Assembly (NCBI RefSeq): GCF_003334315.1
Contig: NZ_QOWR01000052.1
Reading direction: 5' to 3' (one strand)
Length of the DNA stretch: 33,060 nucleotides
Source: Escherichia coli
GTDB taxonomy: Bacteria > Pseudomonadota > Gammaproteobacteria > Enterobacterales > Enterobacteriaceae
Each line of letters starts with the position of its first letter. Position 1 is the first letter of the stretch. The translations under genes and the position numbers were made by a program. Positions 646 to 33,060 of the stretch are shown here, piece after piece. Below the pieces are notes generated by a model that searched no databases, had not been told where the DNA came from, and saw nothing but the letters and a program-made list of their open reading frames with translations.

Positions 646-2097
646 TCATTCACGCCAGAAAGTCGGGGTAAAGAGCACCAGCAATGTAAAGACCTCGAGA
701 CGACCAAACAGCATGTTGGCAATCAGGATCCATTTAGCCACCGGGTTCATACTGGTAAAGTTATCAGCAACCACGCCAAGCCCTGGCCCCAGGTTATTCA
801 ATGTCGCAACAACCGACGCAAAGGCAGAAAAGTCATCCACGCCCGTGGCGATAATCGCCAGCATACTGACAATAAACACCAATGCATAGGCGGAGAAAAA
901 TCCCCAAACGGCTTCGAGGATACGTTCCGGCAGTGCGCGATTCCCCAGCTTAATGCTATAGACGGCGTTCGGATGCACCAGTCGTTTCAGCTCACGGTTC
1001 CCCTGCTTAAACAGCAGCAGGATGCGGATCACCTTCAGGCCACCGCCCGTTGACCCGGCGCAACCGCCGATAAAGGCTGAACATAAAAGCAGTACCGGCA
1101 AAAAGAGCGGCCAGCGGGCAATGCTGTCAGTTGTAAACCCGGCGGTTGTCGCCATCGACACCACCTGGAAAAACGCCTGGTTAATTGTCATCAGCGCCGA
1201 ACTGTAGACATTATGAAACCACAGTACGAGGGTACAAATAACCACCAGCGTAAACTGTACGCCGATAAACATGCGAAATTCCGGATCGCGCCAATAAACC
1301 TTCAGACTACGCCCACTTAACAGTGAAAAGTGCAGACCGTAGTTACAGCCGGAGATCAGCAGGAAGATAGCAATGATAGTGTTAATAGTCGGGCTATCGA
1401 AATAACCGATACTGGCATCATGTGTCGAGAAGCCGCCAATAGCGATAGTCGCAAAGCTATGGCCGATGGCATCAAAGGCATCCATTCCGGCAAACCACAA
1501 CGCCAGCGCACAGGCGACGGTCAGCAAGACATAAATCAACCACAGGGTTTTCGCCGTTTCCGCAATTCGCGGGCGCATTTTGTTATCTTTCAGCGGGCCG
1601 GGCATTTCTGCGCGATAGAGCTGCATCCCACCCACGCCGAGGATAGGCAGTATCGCAACCGCTAACACGATGATCCCCATCCCGCCAAACCATTGCAGCA
1701 TCTGGCGATAAAAGAGGATGGCATGAGGGAGCGAATCCAGCCCCACCAGCGTAGTGGCCCCGGTGGTGGTCAGGCCAGAGAAAGATTCAAAAAACGCATC
1801 GGTAATCGTGAGGTTCGGGCTTTCCGAGAAGATAAAAGGGAGCGCACCGACACTACCCAGCACGGTCCAGAACAGCACCACTATCAGAAACCCCTCACGG
1901 GATTTCAGTTCGCCCTTCTCTTTGCGGTTCGGCCACCACAGCATAGAGCCAATGGCGAGGGCGACAAAAAAGGTCTGGGTAAAAGCGCGGCCCGCTCCAT
2001 CCCGGTAGATGAGTGCTACCAGCCCTGGGATAATCATGGTCCCTGAAAATAAGATGACCAGTAGTCCAACGATTCGGGTAATGGCGCGAAAATGCAT
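646..2097 (-). CDS. trkH: Trk system potassium uptake protein TrkH
   Basis: 483-aa polytopic membrane ORF (MHFRAITRIVGLLVILFSG...) located between yigZ and hemG. Confidence 0.9.
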   Translation of the reverse strand: MHFRAITRIVGLLVILFSGTMIIPGLVALIYRDGAGRAFTQTFFVALAIGSMLWWPNRKEKGELKSREGFLIVVLFWTVLGSVGALPFIFSESPNLTITDAFFESFSGLTTTGATTLVGLDSLPHAILFYRQMLQWFGGMGIIVLAVAILPILGVGGMQLYRAEMPGPLKDNKMRPRIAETAKTLWLIYVLLTVACALALWFAGMDAFDAIGHSFATIAIGGFSTHDASIGYFDSPTINTIIAIFLLISGCNYGLHFSLLSGRSLKVYWRDPEFRMFIGVQFTLVVICTLVLWFHNVYSSALMTINQAFFQVVSMATTAGFTTDSIARWPLFLPVLLLCSAFIGGCAGSTGGGLKVIRILLLFKQGNRELKRLVHPNAVYSIKLGNRALPERILEAVWGFFSAYALVFIVSMLAIIATGVDDFSAFASVVATLNNLGPGLGVVADNFTSMNPVAKWILIANMLFGRLEVFTLLVLFTPTFWRE

Positions 2098-2135
2098 CTC
2101 TGCCGCTTCCTTAGTTCTGCAAAACGAAGTGGGGA

Positions 2136-2750
2136 TTATTCTTCAATCGCTAACAATTGCAATGAACCACGGCTAAAATCCGCCAGCTTTGCGGAAAATT
2201 CAGCCACTTTCGCCGCCGGAAGCGCCACCCGCAGCAGAACGAATGCCTGATAATCACTGTTGATAATTTTGCCGTCACACTGCCCCAGCAACGCTTCAAT
2301 GCCGGTTAACTGACTATATTCACATTGCAAAGTATATTCGGTTAATGGCGTCTTGCGTTGGGTCGTTAGCTGGCGCAGCGCCTGATTCACGCCGCCGCCA
2401 TACGCTTTCACTAACCCACCGGTGCCAAGCAATATGCCGCCGTAGTAGCGCACTACCACAGCGGTAATTTCCCCGACGCCGCTGCCCATTAGCTGGGCGA
2501 GCATCGGTTTACCTGCCGTTCCCGCCGGCTCCCCATCGTCAGAGAACCCCAGCTGTTGTGAATCATCCGGCGCACCCGCCACCCACGCCACGCAATGGTG
2601 GCGGGCATCGGGGTGTTCTGCCCGCACCGATTCAACAAACGCTTTCGCCGCCTCAACGCCATCGGTATGCGCCAACAGCGTAATGAAGCGGCTTTTTTTG
2701 ATCTCTTCAACGACCGTGACCGGTGCCGCAGGAATTAACCAGCTTTCCAT
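2136..2750 (-). CDS. yigZ: IMPACT-family protein YigZ (UPF0029), function uncharacterised
   Basis: [31 protein letters not shown]...; the six-frame track starts one codon earlier at GTG 2753, but the ATG at 2750 gives the 204-aa form and overlaps the pepQ stop by 1 nt (TGATG). Confidence 0.85.
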   Translation of the reverse strand: MESWLIPAAPVTVVEEIKKSRFITLLAHTDGVEAAKAFVESVRAEHPDARHHCVAWVAGAPDDSQQLGFSDDGEPAGTAGKPMLAQLMGSGVGEITAVVVRYYGGILLGTGGLVKAYGGGVNQALRQLTTQRKTPLTEYTLQCEYSQLTGIEALLGQCDGKIINSDYQAFVLLRVALPAAKVAEFSAKLADFSRGSLQLLAIEE

Positions 2751-4270: not shown

Positions 4271-6460
4271 ATGCTTTACAAAGGCGACACCCTGTACCTT
4301 GACTGGCTGGAAGATGGCATTGCCGAACTGGTATTTGATGCCCCAGGTTCAGTTAATAAACTCGACACTGCGACCGTCGCCAGCCTCGGCGAGGCCATCG
4401 GCGTGCTGGAACAGCAATCAGATCTAAAAGGGCTGCTGCTGCGTTCGAACAAAGCAGCCTTTATCGTCGGTGCTGATATCACCGAATTTTTGTCCCTGTT
4501 CCTCGTTCCTGAAGAACAGTTAAGCCAGTGGCTGCATTTTGCCAATAGCGTGTTTAATCGCCTGGAAGATCTGCCGGTGCCAACCATTGCTGCCGTCAAT
4601 GGCTATGCGCTGGGCGGTGGCTGCGAATGCGTGCTGGCGACCGATTATCGTCTGGCGACACCGGAGCTGCGCATCGGTTTGCCGGAAACCAAACTGGGCA
4701 TCATGCCTGGCTTTGGCGGTTCTGTACGTATGCCACGTATGCTGGGCGCTGACAGTGCGCTGGAAATCATTGCCGCCGGTAAAGATGTCGGCGCGGACCA
4801 GGCGCTGAAAATCGGTCTGGTGGATGGCGTAGTCAAAGCAGAAAAACTGATTGAAGGGGCGATGGCGATTTTACGCCAGGCCATTAACGGCGACCTCGAC
4901 TGGAAAGCGAAACGTCAGCCGAAGCTGGAACCGCTAAAACTGAGCAAGATTGAAGCCACCATGAGCTTCACCATCGCTAAAGGGATGGTCGCACAAACGG
5001 CGGGGAAACATTATCCGGCCCCCATCACCGCAGTAAAAACCATTGAAGCTGCGGCCCGTTTTGGTCGTGAAGAAGCTCTAAACCTGGAAAACAAAAGTTT
5101 TGTCCCGCTGGCGCATACCAACGAAGCTCGCGCACTGGTCGGCATATTCCTTAACGATCAATATGTAAAAGGCAAAGCGAAGAAACTCACCAAAGACGTT
5201 GAAACCCCGAAACAGGCCGCTGTGCTGGGCGCAGGCATTATGGGCGGCGGCATCGCTTACCAGTCTGCGTGGAAAGGCGTGCCGGTTGTCATGAAAGATA
5301 TCAACGACAAGTCGTTAACCCTCGGCATGACCGAAGCCGCGAAACTGCTGAACAAGCAGCTTGAGCGCGGCAAGATCGATGGTCTGAAACTGGCTGGCGT
5401 GATCTCTACAATCCACCCAACGCTCGACTACGCCGGGTTTGACCGCGTGGATGTTGTGGTAGAAGCGGTTGTCGAAAACCCGAAAGTGAAAAAAGCCGTA
5501 CTGGCAGAAACCGAGCAGAAAGTACGCCCGGATACCGTGCTGGCGTCTAACACTTCAACCATTCCTATCAGCGAACTGGCCAACGCGCTGGAACGTCCGG
5601 AAAACTTCTGCGGGATGCACTTCTTTAACCCGGTCCACCGGATGCCGTTGGTGGAAATTATTCGCGGCGAGAAAAGCTCTGACGAAACCATCGCGAAAGT
5701 CGTCGCCTGGGCGAGCAAGATGGGCAAAACGCCAATTGTGGTTAACGACTGCCCCGGCTTCTTCGTCAACCGCGTGCTGTTCCCGTATTTCGCCGGTTTC
5801 AGCCAGTTGCTGCGCGACGGCGCGGATTTCCGCAAGATCGACAAAGTGATGGAAAAACAGTTTGGCTGGCCGATGGGTCCGGCATATCTGCTGGATGTCG
5901 TGGGCATTGACACCGCGCATCACGCTCAGGCGGTGATGGCAGCAGGCTTCCCGCAGCGGATGCAGAAAGATTATCGCGATGCCATCGACGCGCTGTTTGA
6001 TGCCAACCGCTTTGGTCAGAAGAACGGCCTCGGTTTCTGGCGTTATAAAGAAGACAGCAAAGGTAAGCCGAAGAAAGAAGAAGACGCCGCTGTTGACGAC
6101 CTGCTAGTAGAAGTGAGCCAGCCGAAGCGCGATTTCAGCGAAGAAGAGATTATCGCCCGCATGATGATCCCGATGGTCAACGAAGTGGTGCGTTGTCTGG
6201 AAGAAGGCATTATCGCCACTCCGGCAGAAGCGGATATGGCGCTGGTCTACGGCCTGGGCTTCCCTCCGTTCCACGGCGGCGCGTTCCGCTGGCTGGACAC
6301 CCTCGGCAGCGCGAAATACCTCGATATGGCACAGCAATATCAGCACCTCGGCCCGCTGTATGAAGTGCCGGAAGGTCTGCGTAATAAAGCGCGTCATAAC
6401 GAACCGTACTATCCACCAGTTGAGCCAGCCCGTCCGGTTGGCGACCTGAAAACGGCTTAA
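4271..6460 (+). CDS. fadB: fatty acid oxidation complex alpha subunit (enoyl-CoA hydratase / 3-hydroxyacyl-CoA dehydrogenase / epimerase)
   Basis: ORF from ATG 4271 ([32 protein letters not shown]), 729 aa, with GGAG RBS at 4261-4264. The six-frame ORF starting at 4145 is an in-frame upstream extension with no RBS and overlaps the FadR site. Confidence 0.93.
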
Positions 6461-27450: not shown

Positions 27451-29280
27451 CTACTCTTCGTCATCGCCATCAACATGCGCACGAATCAGCGCCATAAACG
27501 GTTTGCCAAAGCGTTCCAGCTTGCGCATCCCAACGCCGTTAACGCTGAGCATTTCGCTGGCGGTGATCGGCATCTGTTCAGCCATCTCAATCAAGGTTGC
27601 GTCGTTAAACACCACGTACGGCGGGACATTACTTTCATCGGCTATCGATTTACGCAGTTTGCGTAATTTGGCGAACAGTTTGCGATCATAGTTGCCGCCG
27701 AACGATTTCTGCATCGCTTTCGGTTTGAGCGCCACGATACGCGGCACGGCAAGTTGCAAAGAGGATTCGCCGCGCAGCACCGGGCGCGCGGCCTCTGTCA
27801 GTTGTAGGGCAGAATGCTGGGCAATATTTTGCGTCACCAGGCCGAGGTGAATCAGCTGGCGGATCACGCTCACCCAATGTTCATGGCTTTTATCACGGCC
27901 CATGCCATAGACTTTCAGTTTGTCATGACCATAGTCGCGGATACGCTGGTTATTAGCACCACGAATCACTTCCACCACATAACCCATCCCAAACCGCTGA
28001 TTCACACGACCAATGGTGGAAAGGGCAATCTGAGCATCGGTTGAACCGTCGTACTGTTTCGGCGGATCGAGGCAGATATCGCAGTTCCCGCACGGCTCCT
28101 GACGCCCTTCGCCAAAATAGTTCAGCAATACCAGACGACGGCAAGTTTGCGCTTCGGCAAACGCGCCCATCGCATTGAGTTTGTGGCGCTCGATATCCTG
28201 CAACTGCCCCTGCGGCTTCTCTTCCAGACAACGGCGCAGCCACGCCATATCAGCCGGATCGTAAAACAGCATCGCTTCCGCGGGCAGGCCATCACGCCCG
28301 GCGCGTCCGGTTTCCTGATAATAGGATTCGATATTGCGCGGAATATCAAAGTGGACCACGAAGCGAACGTTTGGTTTATTGATGCCCATGCCGAACGCCA
28401 CCGTCGCCACCACAATTTGCAGGTCATCGCGCTGGAATTTTTCCTGCACATCGGCGCGAACATTATTTTCCAGCCCGGCATGATAGGCCGCCGCGCTAAT
28501 TCCCTTGCTTTGCAGGCGCGCAGCGGTGTCTTCTACTTTCGCGCGGCTGTTGCAGTAGATAATGCCTGACTTACCGCGCTGTTCCTGCACGTAGCGCATC
28601 AACTGATCGAGCGGTTTGAACTTCTCCATCAGCATGTAGCGAATATTCGGACGGTCAAAACTGCTGATTTGAATCAGCGGATCGTTCAGCCCCAGCAGGC
28701 GCACGATATCCTGGCGCGTGGTGTCGTCGGCTGTGGCGGTCAGCGCCATAAACGGCAGCGTCGGGAACCGCTGGCGCAACTGACCGAGCGCGGCATATTC
28801 CGGGCGGAAATCGTGGCCCCATTGGGAGATACAGTGCGCTTCATCGACGGCTAATAACACCGGATTCCAGTGCGCCAGATGCTCAAGAAAGTTATCCAGC
28901 ATCAGGCGTTCCGGGGCGATATACAGTAAGCGAATTTGCCCGGTGCGGCAGCCTGTCATCACTTCAAGTTGCTGTTCGCGGGTTTGCGTCGAGTTAAGGC
29001 ACGCCGCCGCCACGCCGTTGGCTTGCAGTTGATCCACCTGATCTTTCATCAACGAAATCAGCGGTGAAACAACCACGGTAAGGCCGTTTAGCAATAAGGC
29101 AGGAATTTGATAGCAAAGGGATTTTCCGCCACCGGTGGGCATGACGACCAGGCAATCGCGACCGGAAAGCACAGTGTCGATAATTTCTTCCTGGCCGGGG
29201 CGAAACTGTTGGTAGCCAAAGGTTTCTTGTAAAACCTGTTTAGCTCCGGACTCCAGATTCAACACTTCCGCCTGCGCCAC
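27451..29280 (-). CDS. recQ: ATP-dependent DNA helicase RecQ
   Basis: ORF with GTG start at 29280 ([34 protein letters not shown]..., 609 aa); the six-frame track uses an in-frame GTG two codons upstream (29286). DEAH helicase core plus zinc-binding and HRDC regions. Confidence 0.92.
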
Positions 29281-29298
29281 ATTCACCCCGATTGCCTG

Positions 29299-29329
29299 AA
29301 ATAAAAACAGGCGCTATTTTCAGCGCCTG
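29299..29329 (-). terminator. Rho-independent terminator of pldA, immediately upstream of the recQ start
   Basis: On the minus strand, stem CAGGCGCT / AGCGCCTG with loop GAAAAT followed by TTTTTATTTC. Confidence 0.65.
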
Positions 29330-29412
29330 CGCGAGAAACTGCAATGCTTTTAGTCTCTGAGAGGGTAATCCTGGATGCTGGGTTCCAGATTTGCCAACCA
29401 CTCAACCGTTCA

Positions 29413-30282
29413 TCAAAACAAATCGTTTAGCATAACCCCCACACCGACACGGGTCTGGTTGAAGTTATAGTCGATGAGCGATTCGCCATAGCCGCTGTAA
29501 ACCTGAGTATAAAGGCGCACATGTTTGGTGATCGGGTAACTTAAGCCTAACTCCGCGCCGCCGTAGCCGGTGTTCCAGTTGTACTGTCCTTTCGCACTGA
29601 GCACCGCATCACCGAGGTGATAGCCGATTTTAAGCTGGTAGTAACCCATATATTTGGTGATATCCGGGTTATCGTCAGTATTACCCACCACATACCACGG
29701 CTTCACTTCTACCAGCCAGTTACCGTTTTCTGCCATCAGGCGAGTATAAAGGCGGTTCCAGCTGCGGGAGGTCGGGTCGGAACGCCCGTTAGAGTCGTGG
29801 TTATACCCCATCTCCACATCGCGCAGCGTCCAACCTGCAAAACGGTAATCGGTGGCAAAACCGAGGAACAATTGCGGTTCGTAGTTGGTTTCACGAAACG
29901 GTGAAGACTCTTCGCTATTGGACAGTTGCCACCAGGATTTTTGCGTATAAGACGCACCCAACACCGAGTTCGGGCCTAAAATCCCACGCCACAGCGGAAA
30001 TGCCAGGCTCAACTGAAACTTTACTTCATCCTTACGCGCATTTTCCGCCCAGTCGTAACTGGCAATCGCTTCTTTATTCAGATCGCTGGTTTGGGTGTAA
30101 ATGAGGTAGTTGGTGTCATAAGGATAGAGCGTGAACGGATTGTCATGCTCCTGCAGCATATTGGCGATAATACTGCCACGCACCGCTGGCGCGTCATGCA
30201 CCTCTTTCACCGTTGCCTCTTGTGCATATACTGCCATAGGCAACATAAACACCGGCAACAACCAGCCCTGCAGAGTCCGCAT
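29413..30282 (-). CDS. pldA: outer membrane phospholipase A (PldA / OMPLA)
   Basis: 289-aa ORF MRTLQGWLLPVFMLPMAVYAQEATVKEVHDAPAVRGSIIANMLQEHDNPFTLYPYDTNYLIYTQTSDLNKEA... with signal peptide and C-terminal aromatic residue. Confidence 0.93.
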   Translation of the reverse strand: MRTLQGWLLPVFMLPMAVYAQEATVKEVHDAPAVRGSIIANMLQEHDNPFTLYPYDTNYLIYTQTSDLNKEAIASYDWAENARKDEVKFQLSLAFPLWRGILGPNSVLGASYTQKSWWQLSNSEESSPFRETNYEPQLFLGFATDYRFAGWTLRDVEMGYNHDSNGRSDPTSRSWNRLYTRLMAENGNWLVEVKPWYVVGNTDDNPDITKYMGYYQLKIGYHLGDAVLSAKGQYNWNTGYGGAELGLSYPITKHVRLYTQVYSGYGESLIDYNFNQTRVGVGVMLNDLF

Positions 30283-30446
30283 CGGTCGTGTTCTCCGTAA
30301 CGAATTATTGATAAGGTGAATATTTTTCTGCGGGCTATTTTACATACTTAACTCCATAGCCGTTAGTTATCCCTTCCTAAAGTAGAAACCAACAACAAAG
30401 AAGCATAAAATCAACATTTCATTAACCAATGAAGTGTAAGGATGAT

Positions 30447-30914
30447 ATGTCTGCCGTACTGACCGCTGAACAAGCCCTGAAATTAGTGGGTGAGATGTTT
30501 GTTTATCACATGCCATTTAACCGCGCATTGGGGATGGAACTGGAGCGTTACGAAAAAGAGTTCGCACAGCTGGCCTTTAAAAATCAGCCAATGATGGTGG
30601 GCAACTGGGCGCAAAGCATTTTGCACGGCGGGGTCATTGCGTCGGCGCTGGATGTCGCCGCCGGTCTGGTGTGCGTGGGAAGTACCTTAACCCGCCACGA
30701 AACCATCAGTGAAGATGAACTACGCCAGCGGCTATCGCGGATGGGGACCATTGATCTTCGCGTTGATTATCTGCGCCCAGGCAGGGGCGAGCGTTTTACT
30801 GCTACTAGTAGCCTGTTGCGTGCAGGCAATAAAGTCGCCGTCGCCCGCGTTGAATTACACAATGAAGAACAGCTTTATATTGCCAGTGCCACCGCCACCT
30901 ATATGGTAGGTTGA
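30447..30914 (+). CDS. yigI: hotdog-fold (PaaI-like) acyl-CoA thioesterase YigI
   Basis: [39 protein letters not shown]... (155 aa from ATG 30447); the six-frame track starts 6 codons upstream. Confidence 0.82.
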
Positions 30915-30965
30915 AGACATAAAAGCAGGTAAACTGCTGTTACCAATTAAAAATGAGTATTCCCG

Positions 30966-31856
30966 ATGGATGCAAAACAAACGCGGCAGGGCGTATTACT
31001 CGCTCTTGCCGCTTATTTTATTTGGGGTATAGCGCCAGCGTACTTCAAGTTGATTTACTACGTGCCCGCCGATGAAATCCTGACGCATCGCGTGATCTGG
31101 TCGTTTTTCTTTATGGTGGTGCTGATGAGCATTTGCCGCCAGTGGTCCTATTTAAAAACGCTGATTCAGACGCCACAGAAAATTTTTATGCTGGCAGTCT
31201 CTGCCGTGCTGATTGGTGGCAACTGGCTACTGTTTATCTGGGCGGTGAACAATCACCATATGCTGGAAGCGAGCCTTGGTTACTTTATTAACCCGCTGGT
31301 GAACATTGTGCTGGGGATGATTTTCCTCGGCGAGCGATTCCGCCGGATGCAATGGCTGGCGGTGATTCTGGCGATATGTGGCGTGTTAGTCCAGCTGTGG
31401 ACTTTTGGTTCGCTACCTATTATCGCGCTGGGACTGGCATTTAGTTTTGCCTTCTACGGTCTGGTACGCAAGAAGATTGCCGTTGAAGCGCAAACCGGCA
31501 TGTTAATCGAAACCATGTGGCTGCTGCCCGTGGCGGCAATTTACCTGTTTGCTATTGCCGACAGCTCAACCAGCCATATGGGGCAAAACCCGATGTCGCT
31601 GAATTTACTGCTGATCGCCGCCGGTATTGTCACTACCGTACCGCTGTTGTGTTTTACCGCCGCTGCCACGCGCTTGCGTCTCTCAACGTTAGGCTTTTTC
31701 CAGTACATTGGCCCGACGCTGATGTTCCTGCTGGCTGTGACGTTTTATGGTGAAAAACCGGGTGCCGATAAGATGGTGACTTTCGCCTTTATTTGGGTGG
31801 CGCTGGCAATTTTTGTGATGGATGCGATTTATACGCAGCGTAGAACGTCCAAATAA
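30966..31856 (+). CDS. rarD: DMT/EamA-family inner membrane protein RarD
   Basis: 296-aa ten-TM ORF MDAKQTRQGVLLALAAYFIWGIAPAYFKLIYYVPADEILTHRVIWSFFFMVVLM... Confidence 0.9.
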   Translation: MDAKQTRQGVLLALAAYFIWGIAPAYFKLIYYVPADEILTHRVIWSFFFMVVLMSICRQWSYLKTLIQTPQKIFMLAVSAVLIGGNWLLFIWAVNNHHMLEASLGYFINPLVNIVLGMIFLGERFRRMQWLAVILAICGVLVQLWTFGSLPIIALGLAFSFAFYGLVRKKIAVEAQTGMLIETMWLLPVAAIYLFAIADSSTSHMGQNPMSLNLLLIAAGIVTTVPLLCFTAAATRLRLSTLGFFQYIGPTLMFLLAVTFYGEKPGADKMVTFAFIWVALAIFVMDAIYTQRRTSK

Positions 31857-31950
31857 AAAATAAATATATTCTGAAAAAATATGCCGACTCTTGCATGAGA
31901 GTGGGCATATTGCCATGCTGACCGGAGACTCATACAAGGATGTAAAATTT

Positions 31951-32331
31951 ATGTTACGTATATTTATCCCAACATCTAACGGTAAGATTTCCAGACGTCG
32001 TTATATATTTTCATTTATTTTAATAAATTTCATTTTTGCCTTTCTTATTATCTTTTTTAACGATGGAGAAGCAGGCTTTCTTGTTATAGTCTCTACCATC
32101 GTACTCCATTATCTCGTCATCAACATGAATTGCCAGCGACTCCGTGATAGTGGTTTCATCTATATAAAAACTTATGTTTTTGGTACATTAGCAGTATATA
32201 TCATCTCTATCATCACAATGATAGCCGAAGATTTTGCCTGTTCAGGCAATGGTTCGATGATTTTTTTGATTTGTTATTTTTCCACTTTCAGTATGCTAAT
32301 GCTTGCACCTACTGATTCATCAAAACAATAG
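31951..32331 (+). CDS. yigG: small uncharacterised inner membrane protein YigG
   Basis: [67 protein letters not shown]... (126 aa from ATG 31951; in-frame alternative starts at 31891 and 31915); lies in a visibly AT-rich stretch. Start codon uncertain. Confidence 0.65.
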
Positions 32332-32344
32332 TTATGGAGTATTT

Positions 32345-32629
32345 ATGAGTAAGGAATATATGAACGATGGTTCATTAAGTGAAAAATGGAAATACCGATT
32401 TAATTTTTATGATCAACATGGTTTTCCTGGATTCTGGGGGGCAACACCAGAATATAAAGCAGCATTTAAAGCATTAAAAGTAAGACAACGCTTAACTATT
32501 CAAATGAATTTCATTGCTTTCTTCTGTTCCTGGATATATTTATTTGTCCTGGGGTTATGGAAAAAAGCAATTATAGTTCTATTACTTGGTATTCTATCTC
32601 TATTTGTGGTAATGACTCCAACTTATTGA
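32345..32629 (+). CDS. yigF: small uncharacterised membrane protein YigF; reading frame runs into the IS1 end at 32608, so the last 7 codons and the stop come from IS1
   Basis: [53 protein letters not shown]... (94 aa here). Final codons GTG GTA ATG ACT CCA ACT TAT TGA overlap the IS1 terminal inverted repeat that begins at GGT 32608. Confidence 0.6.
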
Positions 32630-33060
32630 TAGTGTTTTATGTTCAGATAATGCCCGATGACTTTGTCATGCAGCTCCACCGATTTTGAGAACGACAGCGA
32701 CTTCCGTCCCAGCCGTGCCAGGTGCTGCCTCAGATTCAGGTTATGCCGCTCAATTCGCTGCGTATATCGCTTGCTGATTACGTGCAGCTTTCCCTTCAGG
32801 CGGGATTCATACAGCGGCCAGCCATCCGTCATCCATATCACCACGTCAAAGGGTGACAGCAGGCTCATAAGACGCCCCAGCGTCGCCATAGTGCGTTCAC
32901 CGAATACGTGCGCAACAACCGTCTTCCGGAGACTGTCATACGCGTAAAACAGCCAGCGCTGGCGCGATTTAGCCCCGACATAGCCCCACTGTTCGTCCAT
33001 TTCCGCGCAGACGATGACGTCACTGCCCGGCTGTATGCGCGAGGTTACCGACTGCGGCCT
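32608..33060 (-). mobile_element. IS1 insertion sequence, partial (right-end terminal inverted repeat and insB 3' portion; continues beyond the window)
   Basis: 32608-32652 is GGTAATGACTCCAACTTATTGATAGTGTTTTATGTTCAGATAATG, the reverse complement of the IS1 right end, followed by sequence that matches IS1 insB coding sequence as I remember it. Confidence 0.92.
32623..33060 (-). CDS. insB: IS1 transposase InsB (C-terminal part; 5' end lies beyond the window)
   Basis: Minus-strand translation ...[125 protein letters not shown] with TAA stop at 32623-32625; the frame stays open upstream to the window edge. Confidence 0.9.

Follow-up and report, generated by a model that had tools for sequence, protein, structure and literature searches.

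Near the end of a 33,060-nucleotide stretch of Escherichia coli DNA (contig NZ_QOWR01000052.1; hereafter the window), base composition falls abruptly between rarD and an IS1 element, over a short segment that carries yigG and yigF. A sequence-only reading took this segment for horizontally acquired, H-NS-silenced DNA. Is it a recent import, or an old resident of its locus that has stayed AT-rich? The chromosomal part of the window concerned reads recQ-pldA-yigI-rarD-yigG-yigF, and the other flank of the slot is corA, which is convergent. Our analysis makes it likely that the islet is a K-12-type yigGF operon that is old, AT-rich, H-NS-silenced according to the K-12 literature, exchangeable between strains, and broken here by IS1. 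The features are as follows.

30966..31856, plus strand: rarD, EamA-family transporter, conserved left flank of the slot (296-aa ORF, annotated rarD in matching genomes)
31857..31950, plus strand: rarD-yigG leader of 94 nt, the first 84 nt of which occur in every slot type but that of O157
31857..32607, no strand assigned: AT-rich islet as it stands in the window, GC 0.326
31951..32331, plus strand: yigG, intact, 126 aa (NF008474), with about four membrane helices predicted by hydropathy and a distant likeness to DUF805
32102..32251, plus strand: 'yigG 1.2' promoter fragment, intragenic and H-NS-repressed, placed by exact primer matches
32345..32629, plus strand: yigF pseudogene, native codons 1-88 of 126 (DUF2628) followed by 6 IS1-encoded codons (from the ORF list)
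32608..33060, minus strand: IS1 (IS1A-type), with its right inverted-repeat end at 32608, running past the end of the window (from the sequence)

The drop in composition that the sequence-only reading had placed at 31860-32607 is real and large. GC content over 31857-32607 is 0.326, against a mean of 0.526 (sd 0.036) over all 751-bp windows of the 33-kb stretch, the lowest of which elsewhere reaches 0.465. Compared with the 28 long ORFs of the window (GC 0.534 +/- 0.021, GC3 0.587 +/- 0.034), yigG (GC 0.328, GC3 0.315) and the yigF fragment (GC 0.316, GC3 0.230) lie about 10 standard deviations below the neighbouring genes in GC and 8 to 10 below in GC3. The codon-adaptation calculation proposed earlier, run with the window's own genes as reference (0.665 +/- 0.040), gave low values for both genes, 0.512 for yigG (z -3.8) and 0.471 for the yigF fragment (z -4.8). 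The yigGF DNA is thus shown to be extremely AT-rich, synonymous sites included, and the islet has the atypical base composition and codon usage expected of a horizontally acquired genomic island.

Two trivial explanations were considered for these values, namely that low GC is a by-product of hydrophobic amino acids, or that the ORFs are spurious readings of AT-rich non-coding DNA. Ile, Phe, Leu, Asn, Lys and Tyr are indeed abundant in the proteins, GC1 and GC2 are low as well, and the AlphaFold2 model of YigG is poor. Against this, the neighbouring membrane protein gene rarD (GC 0.506) has a GC3 of 0.620, against 0.23-0.32 for yigGF, so that the low GC is not a side effect of hydrophobic residues, and the 94-nt leader is likewise AT-rich. 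ORF length (about 121-136 aa wherever the full ORF was read) and gene order are conserved across genera, and YigF yields a confident model that matches DUF2628 models only. The dN/dS ratios of yigG and yigF are 0.05-0.28, well below 1, versus 0.00-0.11 for the flanking genes; judged by these substitution rates, yigG and yigF are genuine genes, subject to purifying selection in a relaxed form. Together, the GC3 and dN/dS values effectively refute both explanations, which we regard as highly improbable.

Over 31857-32607, nucleotide identity to K-12-type yigG/yigF is 100%, and YigG is 100% identical to the K-12-type protein (WP_000944218.1). The E. coli K-12 locus, which we take to be b3818-b3817, has the same sequence over this interval and the same flanks, rarD and corA; it differs in that yigF of the window's strain is split by IS1 after codon 88. 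yigG is preceded by a ribosome-binding site, AAGGA, at 31936-31940 in the leader, and a GGAG ribosome-binding site lies in the spacer before yigF, which starts at 32345, 13 nt past the end of yigG. The leader is also kept in genomes that lack yigGF, which match by megablast at query positions 1-84 alone. It contains a hairpin at 31878-31911 (-23.7 kcal/mol, z -3.8), followed 3' by a T-run on the minus strand only. An Rfam scan of 29000-33060 (E<=1) returned one chance lncRNA match, outside the islet.

The IS1 had been described as adjoining yigF, with 32607 as the end of that gene. Our reading corrects both points: the element lies inside yigF, entering after codon 88 of 126 at 32608, its transposase encoded by the minus strand; 32607 is merely its point of entry. 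The interrupted reading frame runs on into six IS1-encoded residues (VMTPTY) and stops at 32627-32629, which makes yigF a pseudogene here. The right inverted-repeat end of IS1, GGTAATGACTCC..., starts at 32608. Strain 2017.01.04CC shares exactly this junction. There the annotation names an IS1-like transposase of the IS1A family with a programmed frameshift, the remainder of yigF lies past IS1, and the 8-bp target duplication CTATTTGT stands on both sides of the element. The event was a simple insertion. Terminal inverted repeat, programmed-frameshift transposase and short target duplication identify the element as IS1. The insertion removes residues 89-126 of YigF, that is, the last membrane helix and the invariant C-terminal N..Y.K..K motif of DUF2628, leaving the window's YigF without the intact C-terminal helix and motif that characterize the family; genomes with the same junction have yigF annotated as 'incomplete; missing C-terminus'.

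Of 5,426 complete E. coli genomes, 23 have this junction. The best megablast match, strain C9, carries another IS1, oppositely oriented and some 50 nt further upstream, which is an independent event; yigF has hence been hit by IS1 at least twice. IS1 favours AT-rich targets, and repeated hits in yigF fit both this preference and dispensability of the gene. The IS1 in yigF is a late, lineage-specific, secondary insertion.

The silencing by H-NS claimed for the islet is documented for the identical K-12 sequence. The yigF-yigG region serves as the Figure 1 example of a 'promoter island' (PMC3661553), and the corresponding entry of Table 1 (4000528, 663 bp) is listed as H-NS-bound in all ChIP studies (column H = 'A') and was called foreign by two compositional methods, those of Nakamura et al. 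and of Lawrence & Ochman (tabulated in PMC3661553). A small extended protein occupancy domain silences 'yigF and yigG, along with rarD' (Fig 7C of PMC8282354). Finally, an intragenic promoter of yigG is repressed by H-NS and needs an AT-tract and sigma70 R451 (PMC7229825); both primers of that study match the window exactly, at 32102-32127 and 32227-32251. By this identity, H-NS coating and silence would carry over from K-12 to the segment of the window. Our own motif searches were less telling. A sigma70 consensus scan of the islet gave no excess (2 sites versus 4.6 expected) and missed the leader hairpin, and the H-NS motif TCGATAAATT (<=2 mismatches) was found three times against about 1.1 expected pro rata, a weak enrichment. 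Like H-NS-silenced xenogeneic islands, yigGF is AT-rich and strain-variable, and the K-12 literature describes it as H-NS-bound, silent and carrying spurious intragenic promoters. It differs from them in being tiny (0.85 kb, two genes), in having no mobility genes and in being syntenic in several genera; in these respects it behaves as an old resident and not as a recent insertion.

What do the two genes encode? YigG matches the NCBIfam equivalog NF008474 (PRK11371) over its full length with 255.6 bits (E 1e-76), above the curated cut-off of 217; the homologue of Salmonella Senftenberg scores 259.6, the divergent E. coli allele described below 210.4 and an O157-type ORF 26.5, the last two below the cut-off. 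Searched against 1.84 billion cluster representatives, a YigG profile retrieved only 22 proteins (E<=0.001), and by this count the family is tiny. DUF805 (PF05656) is consistently the top Pfam match to YigG, at an E of 0.023, short of significance, for the K-12 protein; among 17 YigG-family sequences, 3 match at E<=0.001 and 10 at E<=0.1, the best at 5.8e-5. The likeness extends to size and multi-helix layout, and to two basic stretches, an N-terminal segment of the type G-[RK]-I-S-R-R and the cytoplasmic loop Q-R-L-R-D-S-G. Small inner-membrane proteins of the DUF805 family in E. coli include YhaH and YhaI. In contrast, the YigG profile retrieves no ordinary DUF805 members, and NCBI keeps a separate equivalog for YigG. 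Hydropathy predicts about four membrane helices, and the AlphaFold2 model places helices at 15-35, 38-67, 70-92 and 100-117, with a confidence (pLDDT 52) too low to warrant a fold search. Both the basic N-terminus and an invariant R-x-R-[DN]-[ST]-G loop are probably cytoplasmic.

Full-length K-12-type YigF matches DUF2628 (PF10947) over residues 17-117 (E 5.2e-10), which places it in that family. Hydropathy predicts a cytoplasmic head of about 50 residues followed by membrane helices, and the AlphaFold2 model (pLDDT 87.5, pTM 0.80) comprises a helical cytoplasmic head, a shorter broken hydrophobic segment (56-68) and two long C-terminal membrane helices. Foldseek with this model gave no PDB match, and in AFDB50 it returned DUF2628 models only (TM-scores up to 0.99), so that YigF shares both sequence and modelled fold with the family. 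Neither the YigG nor the YigF profile gave a meaningful match when searched against PDB sequences.

The description of two tandem small membrane proteins holds insofar as the ORFs are adjacent and both have predicted helices. They are not a tandem duplicate, since YigG and YigF show no similarity to each other by BLASTP or hhalign. Two signs mark them as a pair: the 13-nt gap with its ribosome-binding site, and the position of YigG upstream of YigF in all Enterobacteriaceae loci. This pairing and the conserved loops suggest that they may form a two-protein inner-membrane unit. Outside Enterobacteriaceae, DUF2628 stands alone: in Pseudomonas, Pantoea, Proteus and others, the distant DUF2628 genes are not accompanied by YigG, and neighbourhood clustering of 71 distant DUF2628 loci revealed no recurrent partner gene. 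As to function, a yigG deletion mutant of Salmonella shows less attachment and more aggregation, both weak phenotypes (PMC3579871). The same study gives 82% identity between Salmonella and K-12 YigG, which our comparison did not reproduce, the one Salmonella sequence read (serovar Senftenberg) being 57% identical.

We then surveyed the rarD-corA slot in 5,426 complete E. coli genomes. In line with the sequence-only reading, presence of the genes is not uniform: 2,966 genomes hold at least 80% of the islet, as the K-12-type or the divergent allele, and the rarD-proximal part of the slot takes four states.

K-12-type yigGF: about 2,400 genomes, ~44%
Divergent yigGF allele, ~80% nucleotide identity: 566 genomes, ~10%
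O157/O55-type segment, an unrelated replacement: 1,431 genomes, 26%
Partial matches only: about 960 genomes, ~18%; in the sampled (B2/CFT073-like) ones yigGF is deleted and the 84-nt leader kept

One partial-match genome that was examined (L003) retains a degraded 5' stub of yigG. The O157-type segment encodes, on the other strand, a 104-aa membrane ORF; considered as a possible relative of YigF or YigG, it showed no relation to either and belongs to no Pfam or NCBIfam family. The segment also contains a 128-aa ORF, unannotated in RefSeq NC_017656.1, which is a very distant relative of YigG (NF008474 E 5.5e-6, hhalign E 3e-4, 25-35% identity). The variable presence in close relatives that characterizes genomic islands is thus found here.

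The two E. coli yigGF alleles are themselves far apart. Their dS reaches 0.70 in yigG and 1.22 in yigF, against 0.07-0.17 in the flanks, and in uninterrupted genomes the zone of divergence extends from about 31866, at the end of rarD, to the corA stop. The high-divergence zone coincides with the low-GC segment, as both run from the end of rarD to the stop of corA. YigF of the divergent E. coli allele and YigF of E. albertii share 99% identity; K-12 YigF resembles its Salmonella (84%) and Superficieibacter (83%) counterparts more closely than it does the E. albertii-type allele (70-71%). This pattern of identities implies that allele replacement across species has occurred.

At least six genera carry this pair in the same slot. 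The order yigI-rarD-yigG-yigF-corA was found in E. whittamii, Escherichia sp. E1V33, Superficieibacter electus, Atlantibacter subterranea, Enterobacter sp. E76 (an isolate label), Kosakonia cowanii, K. oryzendophytica and Salmonella Senftenberg; in the E. albertii contig read, only yigF beside corA was seen. The yigG homologue is unannotated in several of the non-E. coli records. Relative to K-12, identity is 30-79% for YigG and 46-89% for YigF, compared with 84-100% for YigI, RarD and CorA, and islet GC is below that of the flanks everywhere (0.30-0.39 in Salmonella, 0.34-0.39 in Superficieibacter, 0.45-0.47 in Kosakonia). A scan of species representatives did not return Salmonella, Citrobacter or Klebsiella, and such gaps point to a patchy distribution with frequent losses.

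These data bear directly on the possibility that a foreign AT-rich fragment newly entered the E. coli lineage and was silenced by H-NS as xenogeneic DNA. The extreme compositional deviation, the foreign calls by both published methods, the presence/absence polymorphism within E. coli and the discordance between the YigF allele tree and the species tree would all agree with such an import. Nevertheless, we consider it unlikely. A recent arrival should be absent from the syntenic site in sister genera, where we find the pair instead, and its divergence mostly scales with that of the flanks, the exception being YigF of the E. albertii-type allele. No integrase, tRNA target, flanking repeats, mobility genes or plasmid/phage carriage was detected in the slot, and the IS1, confined to 23 genomes, is secondary. 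Close tblastn matches in plasmid and phage records, considered as mobile carriers, proved to be mislabelled pieces of chromosome with recQ-pldA-rarD-corA-uvrD. Nor is a donor pool visible outside, since the YigG members whose origin or locus was examined all come from this slot in Enterobacteriaceae. The term 'horizontally acquired' therefore stands insofar as the islet is compositionally foreign, variable and exchangeable, and falls insofar as it implies recent arrival. Vertical descent and repeated exchange between genera are not fully separable on these sequences.

The old-resident reading would account for the locus in the following way. Two unrelated inner-membrane proteins, YigG and YigF, would constitute an accessory unit between rarD and the convergent corA. 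This unit would be an old occupant of the slot in Enterobacteriaceae that has retained its AT-richness, 10-20 times less constrained than its flanks and still under purifying selection, and homologous recombination in rarD and corA, its conserved flanks, would recurrently lead to its loss, replacement or exchange. The two proteins probably cooperate in the inner membrane and affect a dispensable, niche-specific property of the envelope. The strain of the window would then harbour a decaying system, silenced, if K-12 is a guide, and with yigF broken.

The slot has a further type of occupant. A cassette of DUF3289 (YPO3983-family) and DUF943 genes is found in its corA-proximal part in 2,627 of the 5,426 genomes (~48%). 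The DUF943 family is described in Pfam as a putative membrane protein. Like yigGF, the cassette consists of two genes in the rarD-corA slot and is AT-rich (GC 0.27-0.37 in locus L006); unlike yigGF, it is absent from the strain type of the window, and its proteins have no sequence relation to YigG or YigF. Where both the rarD-proximal and the corA-proximal part of the slot are present, a direct repeat of the corA 3' end, 137-147 bp long, lies on either side of the cassette, and in Atlantibacter and Enterobacter sp. E76 (label) a remnant of the rarD 3' end is present as well. These repeats and remnants show that the slot's two alternative contents came together through recombination within its conserved flanks. 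For a representative DUF3289/DUF943 pair, periplasmic toxicity and rescue by the partner were demonstrated by experiment, and a colicin M-like T6SS effector/immunity function was proposed (PMC11148199); toxicity and rescue concern the representative pair of that paper and not the E. coli proteins of this slot.

One could imagine from this neighbourhood that yigGF is an orphan immunity or competition module, in which YigG-family proteins and YigF guard the inner membrane against a phage or a toxin that targets membrane or cell wall, and frequency-dependent selection keeps several ancient alleles. The cassette in the same slot, the coexistence of several deeply diverged alleles (down to the O157-type YigG-like ORF), the raised dS between alleles within the species and the small, multi-pass, inner-membrane nature of the products are all in line with it. 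On the other hand, no T6SS effector lies next to yigGF in the window or in strains sharing its IS1 junction, no toxin gene adjoins yigGF in any locus read, and the adjacent effector and immunity genes that define a T6SS effector-immunity cassette are not found for yigGF. The distant DUF2628 homologues also lack a conserved neighbour. PADLOC (no family at E<=0.1) and PHROGs returned no family, whether for YigG and YigF or for the proteins of the alternative cassette, in keeping with the earlier remark that the islet bears no toxin-antitoxin or defence signature. Moreover, dN/dS values of 0.1-0.3 reflect purifying and not diversifying selection overall, and the operon is silent in K-12, readily lost (the ~18% with partial matches, deleted in all those sampled) and repeatedly disrupted by IS1. 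An immunity module of this kind appears rather improbable.

In a broader version, the slot would be a long-lived 'envelope interaction' locus, YigG-family proteins and YigF serving as orphan immunity or receptor-masking factors against phages or toxins that target membrane or cell wall, with ancient K-12, E. albertii and O157-type (~30%) alleles kept by frequency-dependent selection and exchanged between species, next to the colicin M-like T6SS cassette. We would put this forward only as a long shot; the link to competition, drawn only from neighbourhood and allele pattern, is speculative, and we would give it little chance of being correct. Our favoured reading remains that of an old, exchangeable and dispensable operon.

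As a case of AT-rich, H-NS-silenced DNA, the yigGF islet is already published for the identical K-12 sequence, and in that respect there is nothing new about E. coli in it. It is a textbook-style small operon of this kind, used as an illustration in three published studies. What is added here is its population context: four states of the slot, synteny across genera, alleles deeper than the species, and an effector/immunity neighbour. The rarD-corA slot thereby offers a natural test bed for why old residents stay AT-rich and silenced, and for whatever role DUF805-like and DUF2628 membrane proteins may have in competition or at the envelope.

In E. coli, the DUF3289/DUF943 cassette (a proposed colicin M-like T6SS effector/immunity cassette that occupies the corA-proximal part of the rarD-corA slot in other strains) is bordered on both sides by the 3' end of corA, repeated in direct orientation over 137-147 bp. 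In Atlantibacter and in an isolate labelled Enterobacter sp. E76, a remnant of the rarD 3' end is found there too. The compared sequences are as follows:

Locus L005, 3410-3556 and 5118-5254: the two copies of the corA 3'-end direct repeat
Locus L008 (isolate labelled Enterobacter sp. E76), 4429-4671 and 4728-4910: the two segments compared

This arrangement suggests that two alternative alleles of the slot have been joined through recombination.

A further version of the slot, the O157/O55 type, was found in 1,431 of the 5,426 complete E. coli genomes surveyed. In E. coli O55:H7 RM12579 (locus L006), it contains two adjoining ORFs:

1927-2313, plus strand: 128-aa YigG-like ORF
1412-1726, minus strand: 104-aa membrane ORF

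The 128-aa ORF, left without annotation in the RefSeq record, is, judging from sequence comparison, a very distant relative of YigG (E 5.5e-6 with the NCBIfam model NF008474; hhalign E 3e-4; 25-35% identity). The 104-aa ORF could be assigned to no family. Every slot type except the O157 one shares an 84-nt leader harbouring a strong hairpin (window 31878-31911; -23.7 kcal/mol, z -3.8). As the T-run after this hairpin is present on the minus strand only, it does not look like a classical terminator of rarD but like one for antisense transcripts exiting the islet.

The yigG homologue is absent from the called genes of two source assemblies, where it corresponds to an 'empty' gap of ~485 nt from rarD to yigF:

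Locus L007, 3621-3986: uncalled yigG homologue of Superficieibacter electus
Locus L008, 3609-3947: uncalled yigG homologue of the isolate labelled Enterobacter sp. E76

Several PLSDB 'plasmid' records with yigF (NZ_LN868946.1, locus L095; NZ_CP019447.1, locus L096; and records H86-H89) also carry recQ-pldA-yigI-rarD-corA-uvrD or reach 4.9 Mb; they are pieces of chromosome or entire chromosomes under a plasmid label. A 1.5-kb contig (L011, CASFSC010000152.1) binned in a metagenome as 'uncultured Alistipes sp.' encodes rarD-yigG-yigF-corA 100% identical to E. coli at the protein level, and is most likely E. coli contamination.

Within E. coli, yigF has received at least two independent IS1 insertions, which lie ~50 nt from each other and are oppositely oriented (L001:4705-5472 in strain C9, compared with window 32608). 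Moreover, ~566 E. coli genomes carry a divergent yigF allele (L002:3490-3870), whose product is 99% identical to YigF of E. albertii (L016:33-410) but only 70% identical to that of K-12. The neighbouring rarD and corA are E. coli-like, and the location of an E. albertii-like yigF between them indicates that this allele has moved between species.
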